Part shown: positions 1 through 5,689 of the stretch, one piece after another
How positions within the stretch are numbered: position 1 is the stretch's first letter
How the letters are laid out: each line of letters begins with the position of its first letter
Origin: a virus
Lineage: Duplodnaviria; Heunggongvirae; Uroviricota; Caudoviricetes
Strand: one strand, 5' to 3'
DNA length: 5,689 bases
Virus record (IMG/VR): IMGVR_UViG_2648501150_000009
Location: 1 to 5,689 of that record
The notes under the pieces: generated by a model
Databases searched by the model: none
Told to the model about the DNA's origin: nothing
What the model saw: the letters and a program-made list of their open reading frames with translations, nothing else
Position numbers and translations under genes: made by a program

Positions 1-332
1 CCGCCGCGACTACGGCTGCTGTAGCTGCTGCGAACTCTGCGAATATCGCAAACCAACAGGCACAGCGTGCTGCTAATGCATCAGCCAGCGTTCACCCAAT
101 CACCATTAAGAGCAGTAAGCAAAATCTGGGATTCATAACGTGCGGCACGCGTTCTAATGAAGCTGTAGGCTCTCTGGGATGTACGGTATATGGCGATAGT
201 GAGCGCAGAGAAATTCCATGGAAAACGTGGCCCGGATACGTTCTCGGATCGAAGCTCCCTGCCAGCTATGAAGTAAACGCCGTATCGTTTGATCACTATA
301 ACGGCGTGGCAACGGTCTATTTTGCATATTGA
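1..332 (+). CDS. 3' end of an upstream CDS (partial, start lies outside the window); unknown product with an Ala/Gln-rich low-complexity stretch followed by a Cys-containing C-terminal region
   Basis: Frame 3 is open from the window edge for about 110 codons (…AATTAAVAAANSANIANQQAQRAANASASVHPITIKSS…GVATVYFAY) and ends at TGA 330-332, while the other two + frames hit stops within the first 75 nt. The stop sits 9 nt before the next start, matching the tight packing of the operon. No start is visible, so the product is not identified. Confidence 0.5.
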   Translation, partial: AATTAAVAAANSANIANQQAQRAANASASVHPITIKSSKQNLGFITCGTRSNEAVGSLGCTVYGDSERREIPWKTWPGYVLGSKLPASYEVNAVSFDHYNGVATVYFAY

Positions 333-340
333 GGCTCCGC

Positions 341-1126
341 ATGAAATTCTCCAAATTTTCTGAGTTGGTGAATCGTATTTTGTCCAACAACCACAGCCAT
401 CGTCGCGATATGGATGTAACGATCGTTGTTCATTCGCCTGGCAGCATTGGTTCAACACCCTCAGTTGAGGTTAAGTCAATTCGCGCTGGTTTTGATTGGG
501 ATTCCGGGAAAGTGCTGATTTTCCCAGCACAGCCACTGACCACGCTAACACCAGAACAGATTACTGATATTACTGATAGTGTGCGCAAAGGTCAGTCCTG
601 GCACGCATATCAGGAATACAAGAAGCATAAAGAGCAGTTGGAAAAATTATCGATTGAACTTGATACCGCAAAACAGCGCATTGCAGAGCTGGAGGGTAAT
701 CGCGCGGCGCTGGCTGCGGAGAATGCGAGACTGAAGGCGATATGTGAGGATCGCCGCACGTTTATTATGAATGGCGTGCAGCTTGGTTTTATCAAGGTGC
801 CAACAGTGGAAATAGATCCAGCTCTTGAAACAATTCGTATCGCCCTATCACCACAAAAAACCACTCCTGCGACCGACACTTTCCTGGATGAAGTGAAGAC
901 TGAAGCACGCAAGGAGGGCGCTTACTTTGTGGCGAACAGGATGCTGGCTGCTTGGGAAGCTGGTTTTATTGATGATACTGCGAAGAACGCCGCGGATATT
1001 GCCCGGATGATTCTTACCTCTACTGAGTTTATGGCTAATGCGCGGGAAGGCGATTTTGACCGCTCATTCTCTGATGGCGTTCTCGAAGATATCGCCGAAC
1101 AGCTTAGAAAAGGAGGTAAACAGTGA
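341..1126 (+). CDS. Ead/Ea22-like family phage protein (coiled-coil, 261 aa)
   Basis: ATG at 341 is preceded by GAGG (331-334, 6-nt spacer); the TTG at 329 in the ORF track is less likely. The central heptad-like stretch EQLEKLSIELDTAKQRIAELEGNRAALAAENARLKA and the C-terminal tail AEQLRKGGKQ are what I recall for Ea22-like proteins of lambdoid prophages. It is paralogous to the CDS at 5075..5581 (shared AALAAENA core, TD(T/A)FL(D/A)EV segment and QLRKGGxQ tail). Family assignment is from memory, not a search. Confidence 0.6.
   Translation: MKFSKFSELVNRILSNNHSHRRDMDVTIVVHSPGSIGSTPSVEVKSIRAGFDWDSGKVLIFPAQPLTTLTPEQITDITDSVRKGQSWHAYQEYKKHKEQLEKLSIELDTAKQRIAELEGNRAALAAENARLKAICEDRRTFIMNGVQLGFIKVPTVEIDPALETIRIALSPQKTTPATDTFLDEVKTEARKEGAYFVANRMLAAWEAGFIDDTAKNAADIARMILTSTEFMANAREGDFDRSFSDGVLEDIAEQLRKGGKQ
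702..730 (+). repeat. 29-nt near-identical core shared by the two Ea22-like genes (copy 1; 27/29 identical to 5202..5230)
   Basis: gcgcggcgctggcTgcggagaatgcgAga here against gcgcggcgctggcAgcggagaatgcgGga at 5202-5230. Both encode AALAAENA within the coiled coil; the flanking DNA is much more divergent. Confidence 0.8.
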
Positions 1127-1371
1127 GTAATACCGCACGACTACAGCTTGGTTTTTCACCGCTATCAAAAACCATCGTGTTGGCAAAAATGCGTGACTTA
1201 GGGGATGGAACAAAACGTCGTGTCGGCAATGATCGCGGTCGTGATGTAACCAACGAGGCCGCACAACTCGTTTGGCATCTAGTCATGGCTGAAGGCGGTG
1301 AAATTAATTGGGAGCTGGATGATGGTTCTCGCATGGTATTGAAGGCAGAAAAGCAGGAGCCACCACAGTGA
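1123..1371 (+). CDS. hypothetical small phage protein (82 aa)
   Basis: GTG start at 1123 overlaps the upstream stop (GTGA, 1123-1126) and follows a strong SD AAGGAGGT (1110-1117). Intact 82-codon ORF, translationally coupled on both sides. No recognisable domain. Confidence 0.7.
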   Translation: MSNTARLQLGFSPLSKTIVLAKMRDLGDGTKRRVGNDRGRDVTNEAAQLVWHLVMAEGGEINWELDDGSRMVLKAEKQEPPQ

Positions 1372-1643
1372 ATATCGACACCACGATAACAATCGATACG
1401 GCCCTAAATACCGGTCTGGCACTTTTCGGTTGGCTTTACATCATGTCCCGTACCTGGCGATGGCTGGGTTCCATTTTCCTAAAAGAGTGGAAAAAACGGC
1501 GCAAACAGGAACTACGCCAGAAGGCATTAGAAGCGTTCTATGACGCATTTGAGCTTAGCCGCATTGAACCAGGCACAACAGCCAGAATAGCGACAAAAGG
1601 CGACCTGATGATAGTGATGTTCAGACAGGAGAAAACCAAATGA
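1368..1643 (+). CDS. hypothetical small membrane protein (91 aa) with one predicted transmembrane segment followed by a basic stretch
   Basis: GTG start at 1368 overlaps the upstream stop (GTGA) and follows AGGAG (1355-1359). Hydrophobic stretch ALNTGLALFGWLYIMS…WLGSIFL (about aa 12-38) is followed by KEWKKRRKQELRQK, a positive-inside-type arrangement. Confidence 0.7.
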   Translation: MNIDTTITIDTALNTGLALFGWLYIMSRTWRWLGSIFLKEWKKRRKQELRQKALEAFYDAFELSRIEPGTTARIATKGDLMIVMFRQEKTK

Positions 1644-1864
1644 CAGAACAGACGATGACAAATCGCGAACTTGTTGATGCCGCGATTGAACTTGCTGGCG
1701 ATTTTTATTCCATGATGGGTTACGAGCATCGACCTGGTTTTAAGTATTGGGAGTCACCGCATCCGCAAGAACAACAGGTGTTTGAAATGGCCTGCCGTGC
1801 TTTTGAGGTTATTCGCGGTTCTGATGTGATGGATGCCGTTGCCGACGTGGAGGATGAAGAGTGA
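1640..1864 (+). CDS. hypothetical highly acidic small protein (74 aa)
   Basis: ATG at 1640 overlaps the upstream stop (ATGA) and follows AGGAG (1627-1631, 8-nt spacer). By hand count about 17 D/E against 5 K/R, with an acidic C-terminal tail [10 protein letters not shown]. Confidence 0.75.
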   Translation: MTEQTMTNRELVDAAIELAGDFYSMMGYEHRPGFKYWESPHPQEQQVFEMACRAFEVIRGSDVMDAVADVEDEE

Positions 1865-2172
1865 GCATCATTAAAGAAATGCCGGTAGAACGTGATGAAT
1901 ATGGCTGCTGGACACATCCGGAGTATGAAAAGTTTTGCGCAGGTCGTGAATATATATCCACTGAGGAATTTGACGCCTGGATGAAGGAAAATAATCTTCA
2001 GTGGACTATTCGCAGTATGGATGAAGATGATTTTAATCTGGACGCAGATGGTCCCGATATTGCCGCCTGGGAACCAGTGCGACCAGAGGGCGAAGGATGG
2101 TTTGTTGGCTCTATTCATGACACTGAAGATGGCCCAGTTTGTATCTGGCTGCGGGAGAAGGTTGCCGCATGA
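1861..2172 (+). CDS. hypothetical acidic small protein (103 aa)
   Basis: GTG at 1861 overlaps the upstream stop (GTGA) and follows GGAGGA (1849-1854, 6-nt spacer). By hand count about 25 D/E against 9 K/R. Its stop overlaps the phosphatase start (ATGA at 2169-2172). The Trp/Pro/Gly-rich C-terminal part ([17 protein letters not shown]…VCIWL) faintly recalls small phage DUF-type domains, but I cannot assign it. Confidence 0.7.
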
Positions 2173-2861
2173 ACCAGGCGCTGCATGAAGTGAATTTATA
2201 TAGCCGTATTGATGGTTCAGGCTACAGAAACATATGGGTTGTTGGTGATCTGCATGGTTGCTACACCAGACTGATGTCCGAACTCCATCGTGTGGATTTT
2301 GACCCGGCGCAGGATTTACTGATATCGGTTGGCGACCTTATCGATCGCGGCACCGAAAATGTTGAATGCCTGGAGCTATTGCAGATGCCCTGGTTTCGGT
2401 CGGTTATGGGAAACCACGAGCGATTAATGATCGATGCGTTAAGTCCCGCAGGCAATGTGAATAACTGGCTAATGAATGGCGGTCAATGGTTCTTCATGCT
2501 GGACGCTGATCGGGAAATATTAGCCAGGGCGCTGGTGGAGCTGGTAAGACGTCTTCCCTATATCATTGAGCTGAACACCGGGCATGAAACTATCGTTATA
2601 GCCCATGCCGACTATCCAGGTGGAGAGTACCAGTTCGGTAAGGATGTGTCGCTTTTTGATGTTGTCTGGTCGCGCAGTCGCGTCGGTGATTCTATAGATG
2701 GCATTGGTGGAGAAATCACAGGCGCAGATCGCTTTATCTTTGGGCACACATCGGTACGAAGACCAAAAGCATACTGGAATCAGCACTACATAGACACGGG
2801 CGCGGTTTTTTGCGGAAATCTGACGCTAATGCAGGTGAAGGGAGGGCAGCTTAAAGTCTGA
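2169..2861 (+). CDS. serine/threonine protein phosphatase, lambda PPase / PrpA-PrpB-like metallophosphoesterase (230 aa)
   Basis: Canonical PPP-family motifs are all present: GDLHG (nt 2244-2258), GDLIDRG (nt 2331-2351), GNHE (nt 2409-2420), plus HADYP, WSRSR and the C-terminal IDTGAVF. ATG 2169 follows GGGAGAAGG (2153-2161) and overlaps the upstream stop. The TTG at 2139 from the ORF track is rejected as the start. Confidence 0.93.
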
Positions 2862-2897
2862 TCAAATCATTTACGCACTCAAAATTGCATTAGAACA

Positions 2898-2926
2898 TTG
2901 ATTTTAGTTTTCTAACATATTATTTT
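2898..2926 (+). promoter_or_regulatory. candidate sigma70 promoter in the only sizeable intergenic gap (-35 TTGATT 2898-2903, 17-bp spacer, -10 TATTTT 2921-2926)
   Basis: The AT-rich 98-bp gap (2862-2959) between the phosphatase and the 331-aa CDS contains a -35/-10-like pair with 17-bp spacing. It would drive the downstream module. No convincing Rho-independent terminator hairpin precedes it. The hexamer matches are imperfect. Confidence 0.3.
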
Positions 2927-2959
2927 ACCGCTCGGAACAAAACAGAGTCGGTATGCATT

Positions 2960-3955
2960 ATGAGTGCAATAATCACCCCATATGTCGTAAATGAAACTGG
3001 TGTGGCTGTCTTTCCTGTAGATAAGCCCACCAGCAATTACATCGGCACAGGACGCCGTTTTCTTATATCCCCATTGCCGCGTGAACAGGCTGAAAACACC
3101 CCTGATGGTGTCGTTGACCTGAATTATTCACTGGTTGCCAACCAGTCACTGGCACCCTTTTTTCAAAGTGAGCGTGTATTTAACGCGTTAGGTGGTGAGG
3201 ATTCTCTCGTTCACTGGGTTAGCACCAACATTCACGATTGCCAGGCGCATGATAAGCGCGATTGCAGCCACCAGCTAACCACCCATTTCTATAACGGTTC
3301 TGCCGTTCGCCTGTGCTGGAAGCATGATGCGGAATACATGATGAAGGGATACGGCAAGCTGGAAGACCAACTGTCACTGAATCGCGCCAACTGGATTATG
3401 AACTGGGCTGCCAGCGAGTTAAAACTTCCGCCAGATCGCGATCTGAGCATGGTTGAACTCACCTTTTGGGCCATTCGCCGGAATCTTAAAGACGAACTGC
3501 CTGATGAAGCTGGTCGCATTGCATTTTGTCAGCCAAAAACTGAAATCCCTACCGGCACTCTGAAAGAGTCGGATATTACCTGGGAGCATAGTACCCGCGA
3601 GCTGGTGGATATTTCCGCAGAGCAGATCGTCAATCTGTCCGTCGATGAAGATTCTGGCCTCCTATATATGCGCCGTCCAAAAACCTTACTCGGAAAAAGC
3701 CCGGCTTATCTCCGGTTTGTGGTGTCTCGCCCGTGTGTAGGCTGCGGCGGCAAGGTTAATCACCCATTCATGTACCGCGCCCGCTCGTTAAACGAACACG
3801 ACCGCTGGGCTGTTCCTCTTTGCGATGACTGCGCCAGAAGCGCAGAAAACGATGTCCGGGCATGGGAAAAAGCACATGGCATACGCCTTTACGTAGCCGC
3901 TAACCAGCTTTTCGACTTCGCCATTGAGCGCGGAGTGATCACGTTCAATAACTGA
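2960..3955 (+). CDS. phage protein with C-terminal HNH / His-Me-finger-like zinc-binding motif, possibly DUF968 (YdfU-like) family (331 aa)
   Basis: Intact 331-codon ORF with ATG at 2960 and only a weak upstream SD. The C-terminal segment PCVGCGGKVNHPFMYRARSLNEHDRWAVPLCDDCA (nt about 3734-3832) has the CxxC…H…N…CxxC spacing of HNH/His-Me-finger nucleases. The size and context resemble DUF968 proteins of lambdoid prophages. Family assignment is from memory. Confidence 0.8.
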   Translation: MSAIITPYVVNETGVAVFPVDKPTSNYIGTGRRFLISPLPREQAENTPDGVVDLNYSLVANQSLAPFFQSERVFNALGGEDSLVHWVSTNIHDCQAHDKRDCSHQLTTHFYNGSAVRLCWKHDAEYMMKGYGKLEDQLSLNRANWIMNWAASELKLPPDRDLSMVELTFWAIRRNLKDELPDEAGRIAFCQPKTEIPTGTLKESDITWEHSTRELVDISAEQIVNLSVDEDSGLLYMRRPKTLLGKSPAYLRFVVSRPCVGCGGKVNHPFMYRARSLNEHDRWAVPLCDDCARSAENDVRAWEKAHGIRLYVAANQLFDFAIERGVITFNN

Positions 3956-3968
3956 TGGGAACAATGCA

Positions 3969-4262
3969 ATGAGTCAAGGTAATGGTGACGGAGCTGCAAA
4001 GTGCAGAATCTCCACTTGTTTGATTAATGACAAAAAAATAGAACCGTGCGCGGCGTTGGCACAATCTCTGGAGCAGGATGCTGAATACACGACGCGGAAA
4101 GGTCTGCTGAAATACAAAATCTATAACCATGAATTAATTCATTCACAAGACCTGATCATGCTGCGGTCTGGTGAATTTTCTAAATCGCCTATTCGAGTTT
4201 CATTTTGCCCATTCTGTGGTGAAAGTCTGAAAACGTGGGAAGCGGAGGCAACCAGTGAATAA
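3969..4262 (+). CDS. hypothetical small Cys-containing protein (97 aa), possible zinc ribbon
   Basis: ATG at 3969 lies 13 nt after the upstream stop, with a weak GGGA upstream. Cys pairs CRISTC near the N-terminus and CPFCG near the C-terminus. Its 3' end carries the SD and start of the next gene. Confidence 0.65.
   Translation: MSQGNGDGAAKCRISTCLINDKKIEPCAALAQSLEQDAEYTTRKGLLKYKIYNHELIHSQDLIMLRSGEFSKSPIRVSFCPFCGESLKTWEAEATSE
4244..4258 (+). repeat. 15-nt junction motif GGAGGCAACCAGTGA (SD, 6-nt spacer, GTG start overlapping a stop); identical copy at 5567..5581, variant GGAGGTAAACAGTGA at 1112..1126
   Basis: Exact 15-mer identity between 4244-4258 and 5567-5581, and 13/15 with 1112-1126. 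In each case the GTG is the downstream gene start and TGA or TAA closes the upstream gene. The motif sits in different codon phases of the upstream genes (…EAEATSE* against …RKGGNQ*). Confidence 0.8.
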
Positions 4263-4899
4263 CCGCTTTTACATGATGTGCTTGCGTGAAACTGTGGGTA
4301 ATAACGCCTCATTCCATTGCCATAACGGCAATGGTTACAGTTCTGATATCGATCGCGCTCATGTTTACACGCTGGAAGAAGCCCAAAAAGCCTGGAATTG
4401 TGGTCGAGATATCGATCAGCCTGTTTGCGCTGATAGCGTGGATGCAATGGCTGTGTGGCACGTTGATTGCCAGTACATCCCTACAGAAAGCCTGATTGAG
4501 TCAGATTGCACTGCGTATGTGGCCTACAAAAAAGGTAGCTGGAACGGCAACGATGTTTACTGGCTTCAACACGGTGGATTGCCAACCGATGACTTCAGTA
4601 AAGCGACCATCTTTTGCGTCGCCAACAAAAACGAACCAGGAATAGTTTGGTTGCCATTTTCCATTGCTGATGCAGTAAAGCGCCGGACGTTCAATATCAA
4701 TAACTTTAACCGCAGAACAATGGTTCAGGGCGCAGGTTTGGTCATGCCTGACTGGTTGAAAGAGCAGAACAGAAGAAAGAAGTCGCGAAGCGGGAAGGTG
4801 CGTAGGAATTGTCCGCATTGCGGAAAAATCACCTGGCAGTACAGCCCATATGATTTTGAAGGCTGTCGTGATTACAACTGTGAAGGATGGCGAGAATGA
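4255..4899 (+). CDS. hypothetical Cys/His-rich protein with a C-terminal zinc-ribbon-like motif (214 aa)
   Basis: GTG at 4255 follows GGAGG (4244-4248, 6-nt spacer) and overlaps the upstream stop by 8 nt. A basic stretch NRRKKSRSGKVRRN is followed by CPHCGKITWQYSPYDFEGCRDYNCEGW. An internal ATG at 4273 is an alternative start. Confidence 0.75.
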   Translation: MNNRFYMMCLRETVGNNASFHCHNGNGYSSDIDRAHVYTLEEAQKAWNCGRDIDQPVCADSVDAMAVWHVDCQYIPTESLIESDCTAYVAYKKGSWNGNDVYWLQHGGLPTDDFSKATIFCVANKNEPGIVWLPFSIADAVKRRTFNINNFNRRTMVQGAGLVMPDWLKEQNRRKKSRSGKVRRNCPHCGKITWQYSPYDFEGCRDYNCEGWRE

Positions 4900-5078
4900 C
4901 AATTGACTATCAAGAACTGCGCGAGGCAGCGGAACAGGCAACGCAAGATGAATGGGTAGCATATATTTTGCCGGGTCATAACGGCATTTATCCTGCGCGC
5001 ACGTCTGAGGGTAGGCATTGTGCGGATACTTTATTGACTGGCCTGGCGTCTGTCAGGGGCGGGAGAGCATCAACATGA
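4896..5078 (+). CDS. small ORF (60 aa), possibly the N-terminal module of an Ea22-like gene, either a separate gene or a frameshift remnant
   Basis: ATG 4896 overlaps the upstream stop (ATGA) and follows GAAGGA (4882-4887, 8-nt spacer). Its N-terminus MTIDYQELREAAEQA matches the start of the partial gene at 5578 (SEINYQALREVAERA). Its stop overlaps the start of the next CDS (ATGA at 5075-5078). Confidence 0.55.
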   Translation: MTIDYQELREAAEQATQDEWVAYILPGHNGIYPARTSEGRHCADTLLTGLASVRGGRAST

Positions 5079-5581
5079 GCATCAGAACCTACGCAGTGAA
5101 TTGCAATGACGCATGGCTAAACACCGAAGGTGATGACATCTCCGGCTCATACGTTAAGTACAAAGACCATCAGGAAGTGGTTGCCGCTCTTGAGGCCAAG
5201 TGCGCGGCGCTGGCAGCGGAGAATGCGGGAATAAAGTCTGCAATTCCAGAATCACGGGATATTGAAGATGACAATGACAATATGGATGACGTATCTCTCG
5301 CGGAAGACTTCGGGTTCAATCATGCAATAGAACGGATGAGGAGACAGATACCTGAAACACCAACCACTGATGCTTTCCTGGCTGAAGTCCGGGCGCAGGG
5401 GGTGGATGCTGCTATAGAAGCTGCAAAAAATCTGGTGGCCCAAGAATATGAGTATAAGGATTTCAAAGCGGCGCAGAGTGATTGCTGTATGTACCCTGGT
5501 TCAGACCTGGTAGGGAAGGTTGAAATGACTGAGTGGTTAGTTGACTTTGCTGCCCAGCTTCGCAAAGGAGGCAACCAGTGA
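5075..5581 (+). CDS. Ead/Ea22-like family phage protein, coiled-coil plus C-terminal module (168 aa), paralog of 341..1126
   Basis: ATG 5075 is the first ATG in the frame and follows GGGAGAG (5060-5066). It shares VAALEAKCAALAAENAGIKS, TDAFLAEVRAQGV and the tail AAQLRKGGNQ with the first Ea22-like gene. The TTG at 5018 from the ORF track is rejected as the start. Confidence 0.7.
   Translation: MSIRTYAVNCNDAWLNTEGDDISGSYVKYKDHQEVVAALEAKCAALAAENAGIKSAIPESRDIEDDNDNMDDVSLAEDFGFNHAIERMRRQIPETPTTDAFLAEVRAQGVDAAIEAAKNLVAQEYEYKDFKAAQSDCCMYPGSDLVGKVEMTEWLVDFAAQLRKGGNQ
5202..5230 (+). repeat. 29-nt near-identical core shared by the two Ea22-like genes (copy 2)
   Basis: Direct comparison with 702-730 by eye: 2 mismatches in 29 nt. 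Confidence 0.8.
5567..5581 (+). repeat. second exact copy of the 15-nt junction motif GGAGGCAACCAGTGA
   Basis: Identical to 4244-4258; forms the stop of the second Ea22-like CDS and the SD/start of the downstream gene. Confidence 0.8.
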
Positions 5582-5689
5582 GCGAAATTAATTACCAGGC
5601 ACTGCGTGAGGTGGCGGAACGTGCAATTCCAGCAATGGAACGCCTGTTAATGTTGCCAGCTGATGATGACTTGTTAAGTGAACAGGAAC
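5578..5689 (+). CDS. 5' end of a downstream CDS (partial); N-terminus resembles the 60-aa ORF at 4896
   Basis: GTG at 5578 overlaps the upstream stop (GTGA) and follows AAGGAGG (5565-5570). The frame stays open to the window end (VSEINYQALREVAERAIPAMERLLMLPADDDLLSEQE…). Confidence 0.6.
   Translation, partial: MSEINYQALREVAERAIPAMERLLMLPADDDLLSEQE

Follow-up and report, generated by a model that had tools for sequence, protein, structure and literature searches.

An Ea22-like locus of a P1-like phage-plasmid as a probable chimeric gene re-split along an old gene boundary

At the 3′ end of a 5,689-nt stretch of a Caudoviricetes virus (IMG/VR record IMGVR_UViG_2648501150_000009, positions 1 to 5,689; hereafter the window), Ea22-like sequence is distributed over two open reading frames (ORFs), ORF1 of 60 amino acids (aa) and ORF2 of 168 aa. 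Comparison with related loci indicates that this locus is probably a chimeric Ea22-like gene that was pulled apart again, along an old gene boundary, by a 2-bp duplication. An earlier note made from the sequence alone had offered two readings, namely a tandem array of modular Ea22-like genes, or one ancestral gene broken by a frameshift within 5015-5078 and later stabilized as two coupled ORFs. The ORF coordinates it gave, the differing frames (ORF2 is offset by -1/+2 relative to ORF1), the ATGA overlap at 5075-5078 and the separate Shine-Dalgarno (SD) sequence of ORF2 were all confirmed. In what follows, canonical genes are long Ea22-like genes whose N-terminal domain (N-domain) reads past WPG into ...D.Q.NA..NA.(F/Y)IAA..P..., a continuation found neither in the window nor in its fused relatives, and short forms are separate genes homologous to ORF2. 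L and P numbers denote loci and proteins of the comparison. The features that carry the argument are as follows.

4896..5078, plus strand: ORF1, ATG at 4896, TGA at 5076-5078, 60 aa, beginning MTIDYQELREAAEQA...
5075..5581, plus strand: ORF2, ATG at 5075, TGA at 5579-5581, 168 aa
5061..5065, plus strand: SD sequence GGGAG of ORF2, 9 nt 5′ of its ATG
5019..5022, plus strand: TG duplication, TGTG versus TG in fused and canonical relatives, which moves ORF1 out of the ORF2 frame
4896..5047, plus strand: segment from a canonical long Ea22-like gene, codons 1-50, reading through D-W-P-G if TG stands in place of TGTG
5041..5047, plus strand: microhomology GCCTGGC at the joint, from a three-way comparison of canonical genes, the chimera and loci with a winged-helix gene plus short gene
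5043..5078, plus strand: junction cassette, read in the ORF1 frame as L-A-S-V-R-G-G-R-A-S-T-stop and homologous to the tails of winged-helix genes
4966..4984, plus strand: independent 1-base deletions in relatives, T4>T3 at 4966-4969, GGG>GG at 4973-4975 and GG>G at 4983-4984

The TG duplication and the chimeric fused gene

When 5,426 complete E. coli genomes were searched with megablast, 1,361 proved to contain the region, with close matches (98.5-99.7%) that varied by 1-4 bases in length. Alignment A1 shows CATTGTGCGG for the window and for strain 190693 (L001), and CATTGCGG at the same place for O111:H21 15A (L002) and O104:H4 (L004), which encode a single 228-aa 'ead/Ea22-like family protein' (WP_000034250/251). 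Such 228-aa relatives, 97-100% identical (P0001 on 283 contigs, P0026 on 395 and P0034 on 212), span both frames of the window with one 2-bp indel. The frameshift that the earlier note had suspected within 5015-5078 is therefore the TG duplication at 5019-5022, and the overlap contains no homopolymer longer than 4. A pattern scan of 148 loci at this position found either no insert or TG, and nothing else.

The split allele already exists in thousands of database copies. The exact TGTG 62-mer occurs in 33 E. coli complete-genome records and the exact TG 60-mer in 127; TGTG lies on chromosomes as well as on plasmids of about 90-118 kb, and is carried by 19/92 IMG/VR loci and 5 metagenome loci. 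Among E. coli and Salmonella contigs, the exact 60-aa product is encoded on 390, the 61-aa product on at least 999 and the 168-aa product on at least 1000. Annotation by the Prokaryotic Genome Annotation Pipeline (PGAP) is inconsistent, the split being presented as two genes in L001, L007, L009 and L102 and as a 'frameshifted' pseudogene in L005.

The 228-aa gene is composite in its turn. On the left side of the joint, 55 nt match canonical genes L099, L057 and L073 exactly once the TG duplication is set aside. To the right of GCCTGGC, only two bases before the ATG distinguish the window and the fused genes from the winged-helix/short-gene junction of L167. The canonical protein P0172 instead continues ...EGRHCGYFIDWPG into IDGQRNAGANARYIAAIPPKVALSLLDE... 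(WPG followed by IDGQRNAGANARYIAA...). All classified loci share the site pattern. Because the two sides of GCCTGGC match different kinds of locus, the 228-aa protein is chimeric and, judged by these alignments, joins residues 1-50 of the N-domain, through the linker VCQGRESIN, to an entire short gene. The position of the duplication holds TG in 42/42 canonical genes, so TG is native to the N-domain, and the order of events thus runs from a canonical gene and a winged-helix/short-gene junction, via an in-frame chimera, to the TG duplication. The earlier idea of one ancestral gene broken by a frameshift holds for this latest step, but the 'ancestral gene' was already a recombinant of an N-domain fragment and a complete short gene.

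The donor arrangement is preserved in seven IMG/VR loci (L114, L117, L166, L167, L168, L173 and L174), in which the short gene follows an unrelated gene. In L114 and L167, analysed in detail, the upstream gene encodes 123-155 aa with weak winged-helix matches (Pfam MarR/IclR). Upstream winged-helix products end in ...NPLNNLFNQCLASVRGGRASA (tail ...CLASVRGGRASA, LASVRGGRASA) or in ...RAEV, and their TGA overlaps the ATG of the short gene. Assignment of the genes with the LASVRGGRASA tail to DUF977 was considered and dropped, since Pfam gave only the weak MarR/IclR matches; a DUF977-like tail is confined to a 99-aa gene of Citrobacter described below.

The junction cassette (5043-5078) retains the signature of this origin. 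In fused relatives it is read in another frame, as the linker VCQGRESIN. Among the window and the winged-helix-type cassettes there are five substitutions (5048, 5051, 5054, 5055). None of them changes an amino acid of the tail frame (Ala, Ser, Val, Arg) and every one changes an amino acid of the ORF2 frame, a pattern that identifies the tail frame as the long-term coding frame of the cassette. The SD sequence of ORF2 is likewise kept as GGGAGAG(C/T)A... in the winged-helix/short-gene junctions, including those of Citrobacter prophages. The ATGA overlap and SD are thus not a later stabilization of a broken gene, as had been proposed, but an older native junction that is present with unrelated upstream genes in other phages.

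The 5′ boundary of the short gene is a recurrent fusion point. Other fusions at or beside its start are present in P0307, P0312, P0209 and L170:1400-1520. They comprise ...KHSEVKTYAVNC... after a duplicated module, a partial DUF1627 protein running ...RRASISIRTYAVNC... and a coiled coil joined as LKQSEKE to CGYFIDWPGV.

ORF2 as a short-form gene and ORF1 as a remnant

ORF2 carries a TYAVNCNDAWLNTEGDD module at its N-terminus, followed by a predicted coiled coil (...ALEAKCAALAAENAG...) and by a C-terminal part whose last residues are AAQLRKGGNQ. When the 168-aa protein was scored against 1.84 billion cluster representatives (50% identity), 606 matched, and about 40 of the best 150 matches were proteins of 135-170 aa in which residue 1-4 aligned with ORF2 residue 1-3. 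These short forms start M-x-x-x-(K/R/N)-TYAVNCNDAWLNT... with varying first residues (MSEVK, MKIN, MREVK, MTDVK, MEKVK), for example MSEVKTYAVNCND..., MKINTYAVNCND..., MREVKTYAV..., MEKVKFYAV... and MTDVKIYTI... ORF2 aligns with them end to end (P0167, 72% identity over 3-168; P0217, 45%). A second search returned short forms as 'hypothetical protein' in Citrobacter, Salmonella, E. coli and the isolated Citrobacter phage vB_CfrS_K1M.

ORF2 thus aligns from residue 1 to the C-terminus with homologs encoded as separate genes, and these have their own start codon and SD behind unrelated genes, including winged-helix genes (L114, L167 and others), a gene of 99 aa resembling DUF977 (L320) and an HNH gene (L319). 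In vB_CfrS_K1M the short-form gene lies 21 nt after the HNH gene. P0324, a shorter member without the TYAVNCNDAW module, is encoded in Citrobacter freundii prophages downstream of lambda-type O and P genes and of a 99-aa gene, with a 4-nt overlap; the 99-aa product has a DUF977-like C-terminal tail and ends ...FYGRVSA with GGGAGAGTATCAGCATGA. The short forms at 8 IMG/VR loci and 4 further loci were not always preceded by a degraded out-of-frame Ea22 N-domain. From these alignments, ORF2 is a complete short-form gene read from its native ATG.

Membership of the wider family was assessed with the Pfam Ead_Ea22 profile (PF13935), whose gathering threshold of 27 bits is exceeded by ORF1 (profile positions 2-45, E 7.9e-12, 46.4 bits), ORF2 (48-138, E 7.2e-11, 43.3 bits) and the 37-aa fragment of the next gene, gene 3, which begins at 5578 (1-29, E 5.4e-9, 37.2 bits). 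The recurrence of the N-terminal motif in ORF1 and gene 3, pointed out in the earlier note, therefore reflects true homology. No single polypeptide of the window spans the profile, which the fused relative covers over 1-138 and canonical P0172 over 1-139. The complementary matches of ORF1 and ORF2 at first suggest one domain cut in two, an interpretation weakened by the ORF2 match being mainly to the coiled coil and by the chimeric nature of the fused gene. Most short-form members carry no Pfam domain, and ORF2 matches Ead_Ea22 through its coiled coil. The C-terminus of ORF2 is LRKGGNQ and lacks the lambda-type K/R-G-E motif reported for Ea22 (PMC7093339); some relatives end ...IRIKGE or ...IRIKGGE. 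ORF2 matches phrog_368/492/614, the fused 228-aa protein matches phrog_368 over its full length and the 60-position profile phrog_14804 matches ORF1 with its tail included (116.6 bits); the PHROGs matched by these three proteins carry no annotation. A PDB sequence search returned no similar solved chain, the lambda Ea22 C-terminal domain included, no NCBIfam model matched, and a promoter and terminator scan found nothing relevant. ORF2 is better described as an unnamed short-form family member than as a protein of full Ea22 architecture.

In ORF1, residues 1-44 are the native canonical Ea22-like N-terminal domain, followed by 8 out-of-frame residues (CADTLLTG) and then by LASVRGGRAST and the stop. 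This tail lies in the original tail frame of the junction and is the same tail as that of the upstream winged-helix genes. The ORF1 product is probably a truncated domain fragment or remnant that lacks a function of its own. At three loci, foreign sequence adjoins the N-domain fragment at new joints, upstream of CATTGTGCGG on the TGTG allele in L097 and L153 and upstream of CCTGCGCGCACGTCT in L049. They reflect additional rearrangement of the remnant, or possibly mobile elements inserted into it.

Recurrent frameshifts and competing explanations

The TG duplication is one of four independent lesions that converge on one TGA. The other three, the 1-base-deletion alleles T4>T3, G3>G2 and GG>G, lie on the TG background and shift reading into the +1 frame, to the same TGA as with the duplication. 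Every locus found by the site pattern was classified as an ATGA-type chimera, as canonical, or as a 'del6' chimera, which lacks AACATG and hence has no TGA/ATG. Frameshifts in the N-domain fragment were distributed as follows.

IMG/VR, 92 loci: ATGA-type chimeras 31/52; canonical genes 0/22; del6 chimeras 1/18 (a different lesion, in L034)
Metagenome contigs, 56 loci: ATGA-type chimeras 10/22; canonical genes 0/20; del6 chimeras 0/10
Combined, counted by copies: ATGA-type chimeras 41/74; canonical genes 0/42 (Fisher p 3e-11); del6 chimeras 1/28 (Fisher p 7e-7)

The del6 class (L023, L038 and L050; window 5070-5075) arose by a 6-bp deletion within a repeat, GAGCATCA..GAGCATCA, that removed Asn-Met and with them the TGA and the internal ATG; its members are 226-aa fusions that are nearly never frameshifted. 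A hairpin at 4969-4986 (TGCCG-GGTCATAA-CGGCA) overlaps the G3>G2 and GG>G sites and adjoins the T4 run. It was considered as a mutational hotspot and ruled out, the same sequence being present in canonical genes without frameshifts; mutation bias in general, the hairpin included, cannot explain the contrast between classes, given that the 150-nt N-terminal sequence is the same in canonical genes. In 34/36 split alleles the ORF2 part reaches its normal end, across at least six C-terminal variants (137, 147, 154, 166, 168 and 217-232 aa).

We favour the following sequence of events. As the sequence comparison shows, a canonical long gene was joined at GCCTGGC to the 3′ end of a winged-helix gene preceding a short gene, the N-domain frame happening to fit that of the short gene and giving the 228-aa fusion seen in most relatives. 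The change of TG to TGTG at 5019-5022 then returned ORF1 to the original frame of the junction, so that it stops at the original TGA (5076-5078), whilst ORF2 retained the original ATG at 5075 and the original GGGAG; in effect, the fusion was undone along a fossil gene boundary. Translation of ORF2 could proceed by re-initiation at ATG 5075 after ORF1, by direct initiation from the SD, or by both, as at the other ATGA/GTGA junctions of the operon. A 168-aa short-form protein would be made in its natural stand-alone form, together with a truncated ORF1 product functionless alone. ORF2 is probably expressed. The population data suggest that the split is tolerated since ORF2 is self-sufficient.

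Several observations weigh against this account. Apart from TG, nothing separates the main TGTG haplotype from the main fused one, and linked single-nucleotide polymorphisms (SNPs) number 0; because the two match in this way, the duplication is young and the ratio of non-synonymous to synonymous substitution rates has no power, and an attempt to date the duplication by linked SNPs yielded no date. In each of the five GenBank phage records with the segment (5/5), the gene is fused and reads TG. A second 1-base deletion in the ORF2 part (about 5390-5440) truncates that part to 113 aa in L005 and L006, two alleles that were split before, a sign of decay in some lineages. Copies are not independent, and counted by events the comparison is 4 versus 0-1, with p roughly 0.06 by background and about 0.1 by frameshift class. 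An AlphaFold2 model of the fused 228-aa protein from a shallow alignment had low confidence (predicted local distance difference test score 46.8 overall, below 50 over residues 1-95; a helix predicted at residues 90-116), gives no structural support and cannot place the break in a fold. Translation of ORF2 and its coupling to ORF1 are themselves deduced from sequence signals. Finally, the lambda Ea22 C-terminal domain alone fails to reproduce the full-length phenotype (PMC10834534), and N-terminal parts can therefore matter in the Ea22 family.

Several of these points would equally suit a plain pseudogene. Neither piece would then be functional, the ATGA and SD would survive without significance, and hitch-hiking on successful prophages and phage-plasmids would account for the frequency of the allele. 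The window differs from the 228-aa genes by a single indel not divisible by 3 (+2, TG), PGAP labels frameshifted relatives L003, L005 and L006 as pseudogenes, and the second frameshifts, the youth of the mutation and the TG form of all 5 deposited phage genomes point the same way. The earlier note had taken one contiguous homolog with one indel as the mark of a pseudogene, and formally such a homolog exists. ORF2, however, is a full-length stand-alone family member at its native start, complete against a diverse family and with SD and stop-start overlap kept; moreover, IMG/VR has no frameshifts in canonical genes, although these offer an identical target for mutation, and hardly any in del6 chimeras, with both at 0 in the replicate metagenome set, and the ORF2 part was intact in nearly all split alleles. 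On balance we regard the pseudogene as unlikely. A selective explanation, that the split was repeatedly favoured because ORF2 functions best or only with a free N-terminus and the 228-aa fusion is a handicap, would make the four frameshifts adaptive 'un-fusions'; we hold it to be doubtful, if worth entertaining. Were it true, un-fusions would have risen to about half of the ATGA-type chimeras, and the fossil boundary would be a ready-made repair site for a bad fusion.

The direction of the change could also be the reverse, with the TGTG split ancestral and the 228-aa form derived by a 2-bp deletion. The ORF1 tail and ATGA junction do lie in the native frame of the junction, and TG/TGTG is a single step either way, but TG is present in all 42 canonical N-domain genes, where ...EGRH-CGYFIDWPG is the conserved reading, the three 1-base-deletion alleles lie on a TG background and recombination at GCCTGGC alone already yields an in-frame fusion, which makes this order very improbable. 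Programmed -1 ribosomal frameshifting or transcriptional slippage, restoring a protein of roughly 229 aa, would draw on ORF2 lying in the -1 frame relative to ORF1 and on the 60-nt overlap of the frames (5018-5078). An X XXY YYZ heptamer was not found in the ORF1 frame over 4896-5078, homopolymers in the overlap are all of 4 or fewer, Rfam returned no match and the lesion is an ordinary indel relative to relatives; we accordingly give this mechanism hardly any weight. A sequencing or assembly error in the window has a negligible chance of being correct, given the exact 62-mer in complete records of chromosomes and plasmids, the further IMG/VR and metagenome loci and the contig counts of the exact products.

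Comparison with known systems, operon context and neighbouring genes

In Ea22, a coiled coil lies between a short N-terminal region and a variable C-terminal domain; the protein forms tetramers and favours lysogeny, and its family is mosaic (PMC7093339, PMC10834534). The N-terminal motif of ORF1 and gene 3 and the coiled-coil match of ORF2 resemble the Ea22 of lambda and Stx phages and Ead of P22 (PF13935; IPR025153), and the window gene likewise sits in an early, non-essential accessory operon. It differs in that a recombination joint ends the N-domain at WPG, the profile is split over two polypeptides, and ORF2 lies on a P1-like phage-plasmid at a position other than the exo-xis region. By analogy, ORF2 is probably an early accessory protein of this phage-plasmid acting on the host or on a developmental decision. 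With the stand-alone short forms ORF2 shares first-to-last-residue alignment and the same kind of ATGA junction and SD, but its upstream partner is an Ea22 N-domain fragment and not a winged-helix or HNH gene.

In the Hendrix/Juhala model, mosaic 'novel joints' fall at gene boundaries in lambdoid phages, and genes fuse or split by small indels. The recombination in the window, at a microhomology of 7-9 nt near a gene boundary and with flanking modules that occur in other combinations, resembles such joints; unlike them, it lies inside a gene, created an in-frame fusion and was undone several times by small frameshifts at a fossil stop/start. ATGA and GTGA stop-start overlaps couple translation, as in trpB-trpA and many phage operons. 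ORF1 and ORF2 have the same 4-nt overlap with the SD inside the upstream ORF, but here the coupling is putative and the upstream ORF probably only a remnant. The case combines ordinary phage mosaicism with a small indel and is not a new kind of system. A literature search on 'Ea22-like' turned up no account of either the split or the short form. As far as that search goes, neither the family of short forms nor the recombinant origin of the 228-aa proteins nor their repeated re-splitting at a fossil junction has been described.

For annotation, the favoured account would make ORF1 and ORF2 neither two ordinary Ea22-like genes nor one dead gene, PGAP doing both across genomes; ORF2 would be listed as a complete member of an unnamed family mostly missed by Pfam, and ORF1 as a domain fragment. 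Old stop/start junctions inside fusions would render some frameshifts harmless. The natural series of canonical gene, in-frame chimera, chimera without internal start and independent re-splits may be useful for asking which Ea22-like parts are needed.

The carrier is a non-mobilizable plasmid of roughly 90-100 kb and of P1-like type. The best match is the JS316 plasmid NZ_CP058619 (97.6% over 704-5615), which has the same gene order as the window (214-60-168-181 aa) and a Ref nuclease gene a few kb upstream; the segment is also found on GenBank records named P1. The genes flanking the split locus are as follows.

4255..4899, plus strand: upstream gene, 214 aa, phrog_2457; its TGA overlaps the ATG of ORF1 (AATGA)
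5578..5689, plus strand: gene 3, partial; its GTG start overlaps the ORF2 stop (GTGA); begins SEINYQALREVAERA...

The 214-aa gene had no Pfam match and also precedes the 60-aa ORF in the P1-like plasmids L007, L008 and L102. Gene 3, of which the window holds 37 aa, is complete at 181 aa and 249 aa in L102 and L004, respectively. It is a separate Ea22-like paralog bearing the N-terminal motif, and in a family that is mosaic the proposed tandem array of modular genes is therefore true, but only in this limited sense. PGAP places the start of gene 3 at the overlapping GTG in L004, L006 and L102, and at an ATG 54 nt downstream in L001, L002 and L003, whose annotation thereby loses the motif.

A small-gene operon on one strand fills the window, with ATGA/GTGA stop/start overlaps joining nearly all genes. 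Either tetranucleotide contains 11/12 of the gene starts examined (1123, 1368, 1640, 1861, 2169, 2960, 3969, 4255, 4896, 5075 and 5578). Most of these overlap the stop of the previous gene; short intergenic gaps precede 2960 and 3969, and 2169 depends on the choice of start. Translational coupling looks to extend across the entire operon. The duplex of the ORF2 SD with the anti-SD is -7.4 kcal/mol, other starts of the operon ranging from -4 to -13. The operon also encodes a metallophosphoesterase (Pfam Metallophos, 2169-2861) and a DUF968 protein (2960-3955; phrog_96, 'HNH endonuclease'), and the small ORFs adjoining these two genes match only unannotated PHROGs.

Another phrog_368 protein is encoded at 341-1126 (TTG 329 in the ORF list), with a length of about 261-265 aa depending on the start. 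It has a coiled coil and a C-terminal ...AEQLRKGGKQ in common with ORF2, at 28% identity, whilst its N-terminus differs (phrog_6026) and gave no Pfam Ead_Ea22 match; it is a third N-terminal solution on the same C-terminal body within one 5.7-kb window. Elsewhere in the collection, L039, L052, L083, L094 and L098 encode proteins of canonical type, 152 aa long, whose C-terminus is ...VSEQN or ...TSERN, immediately ahead of TTAATTACCAGGCACT. These genes appear to run into the start of the next Ea22-like paralog (GTGAGCGAAATTAATTACCAGG), which suggests deletion or recombination between tandem paralogs.

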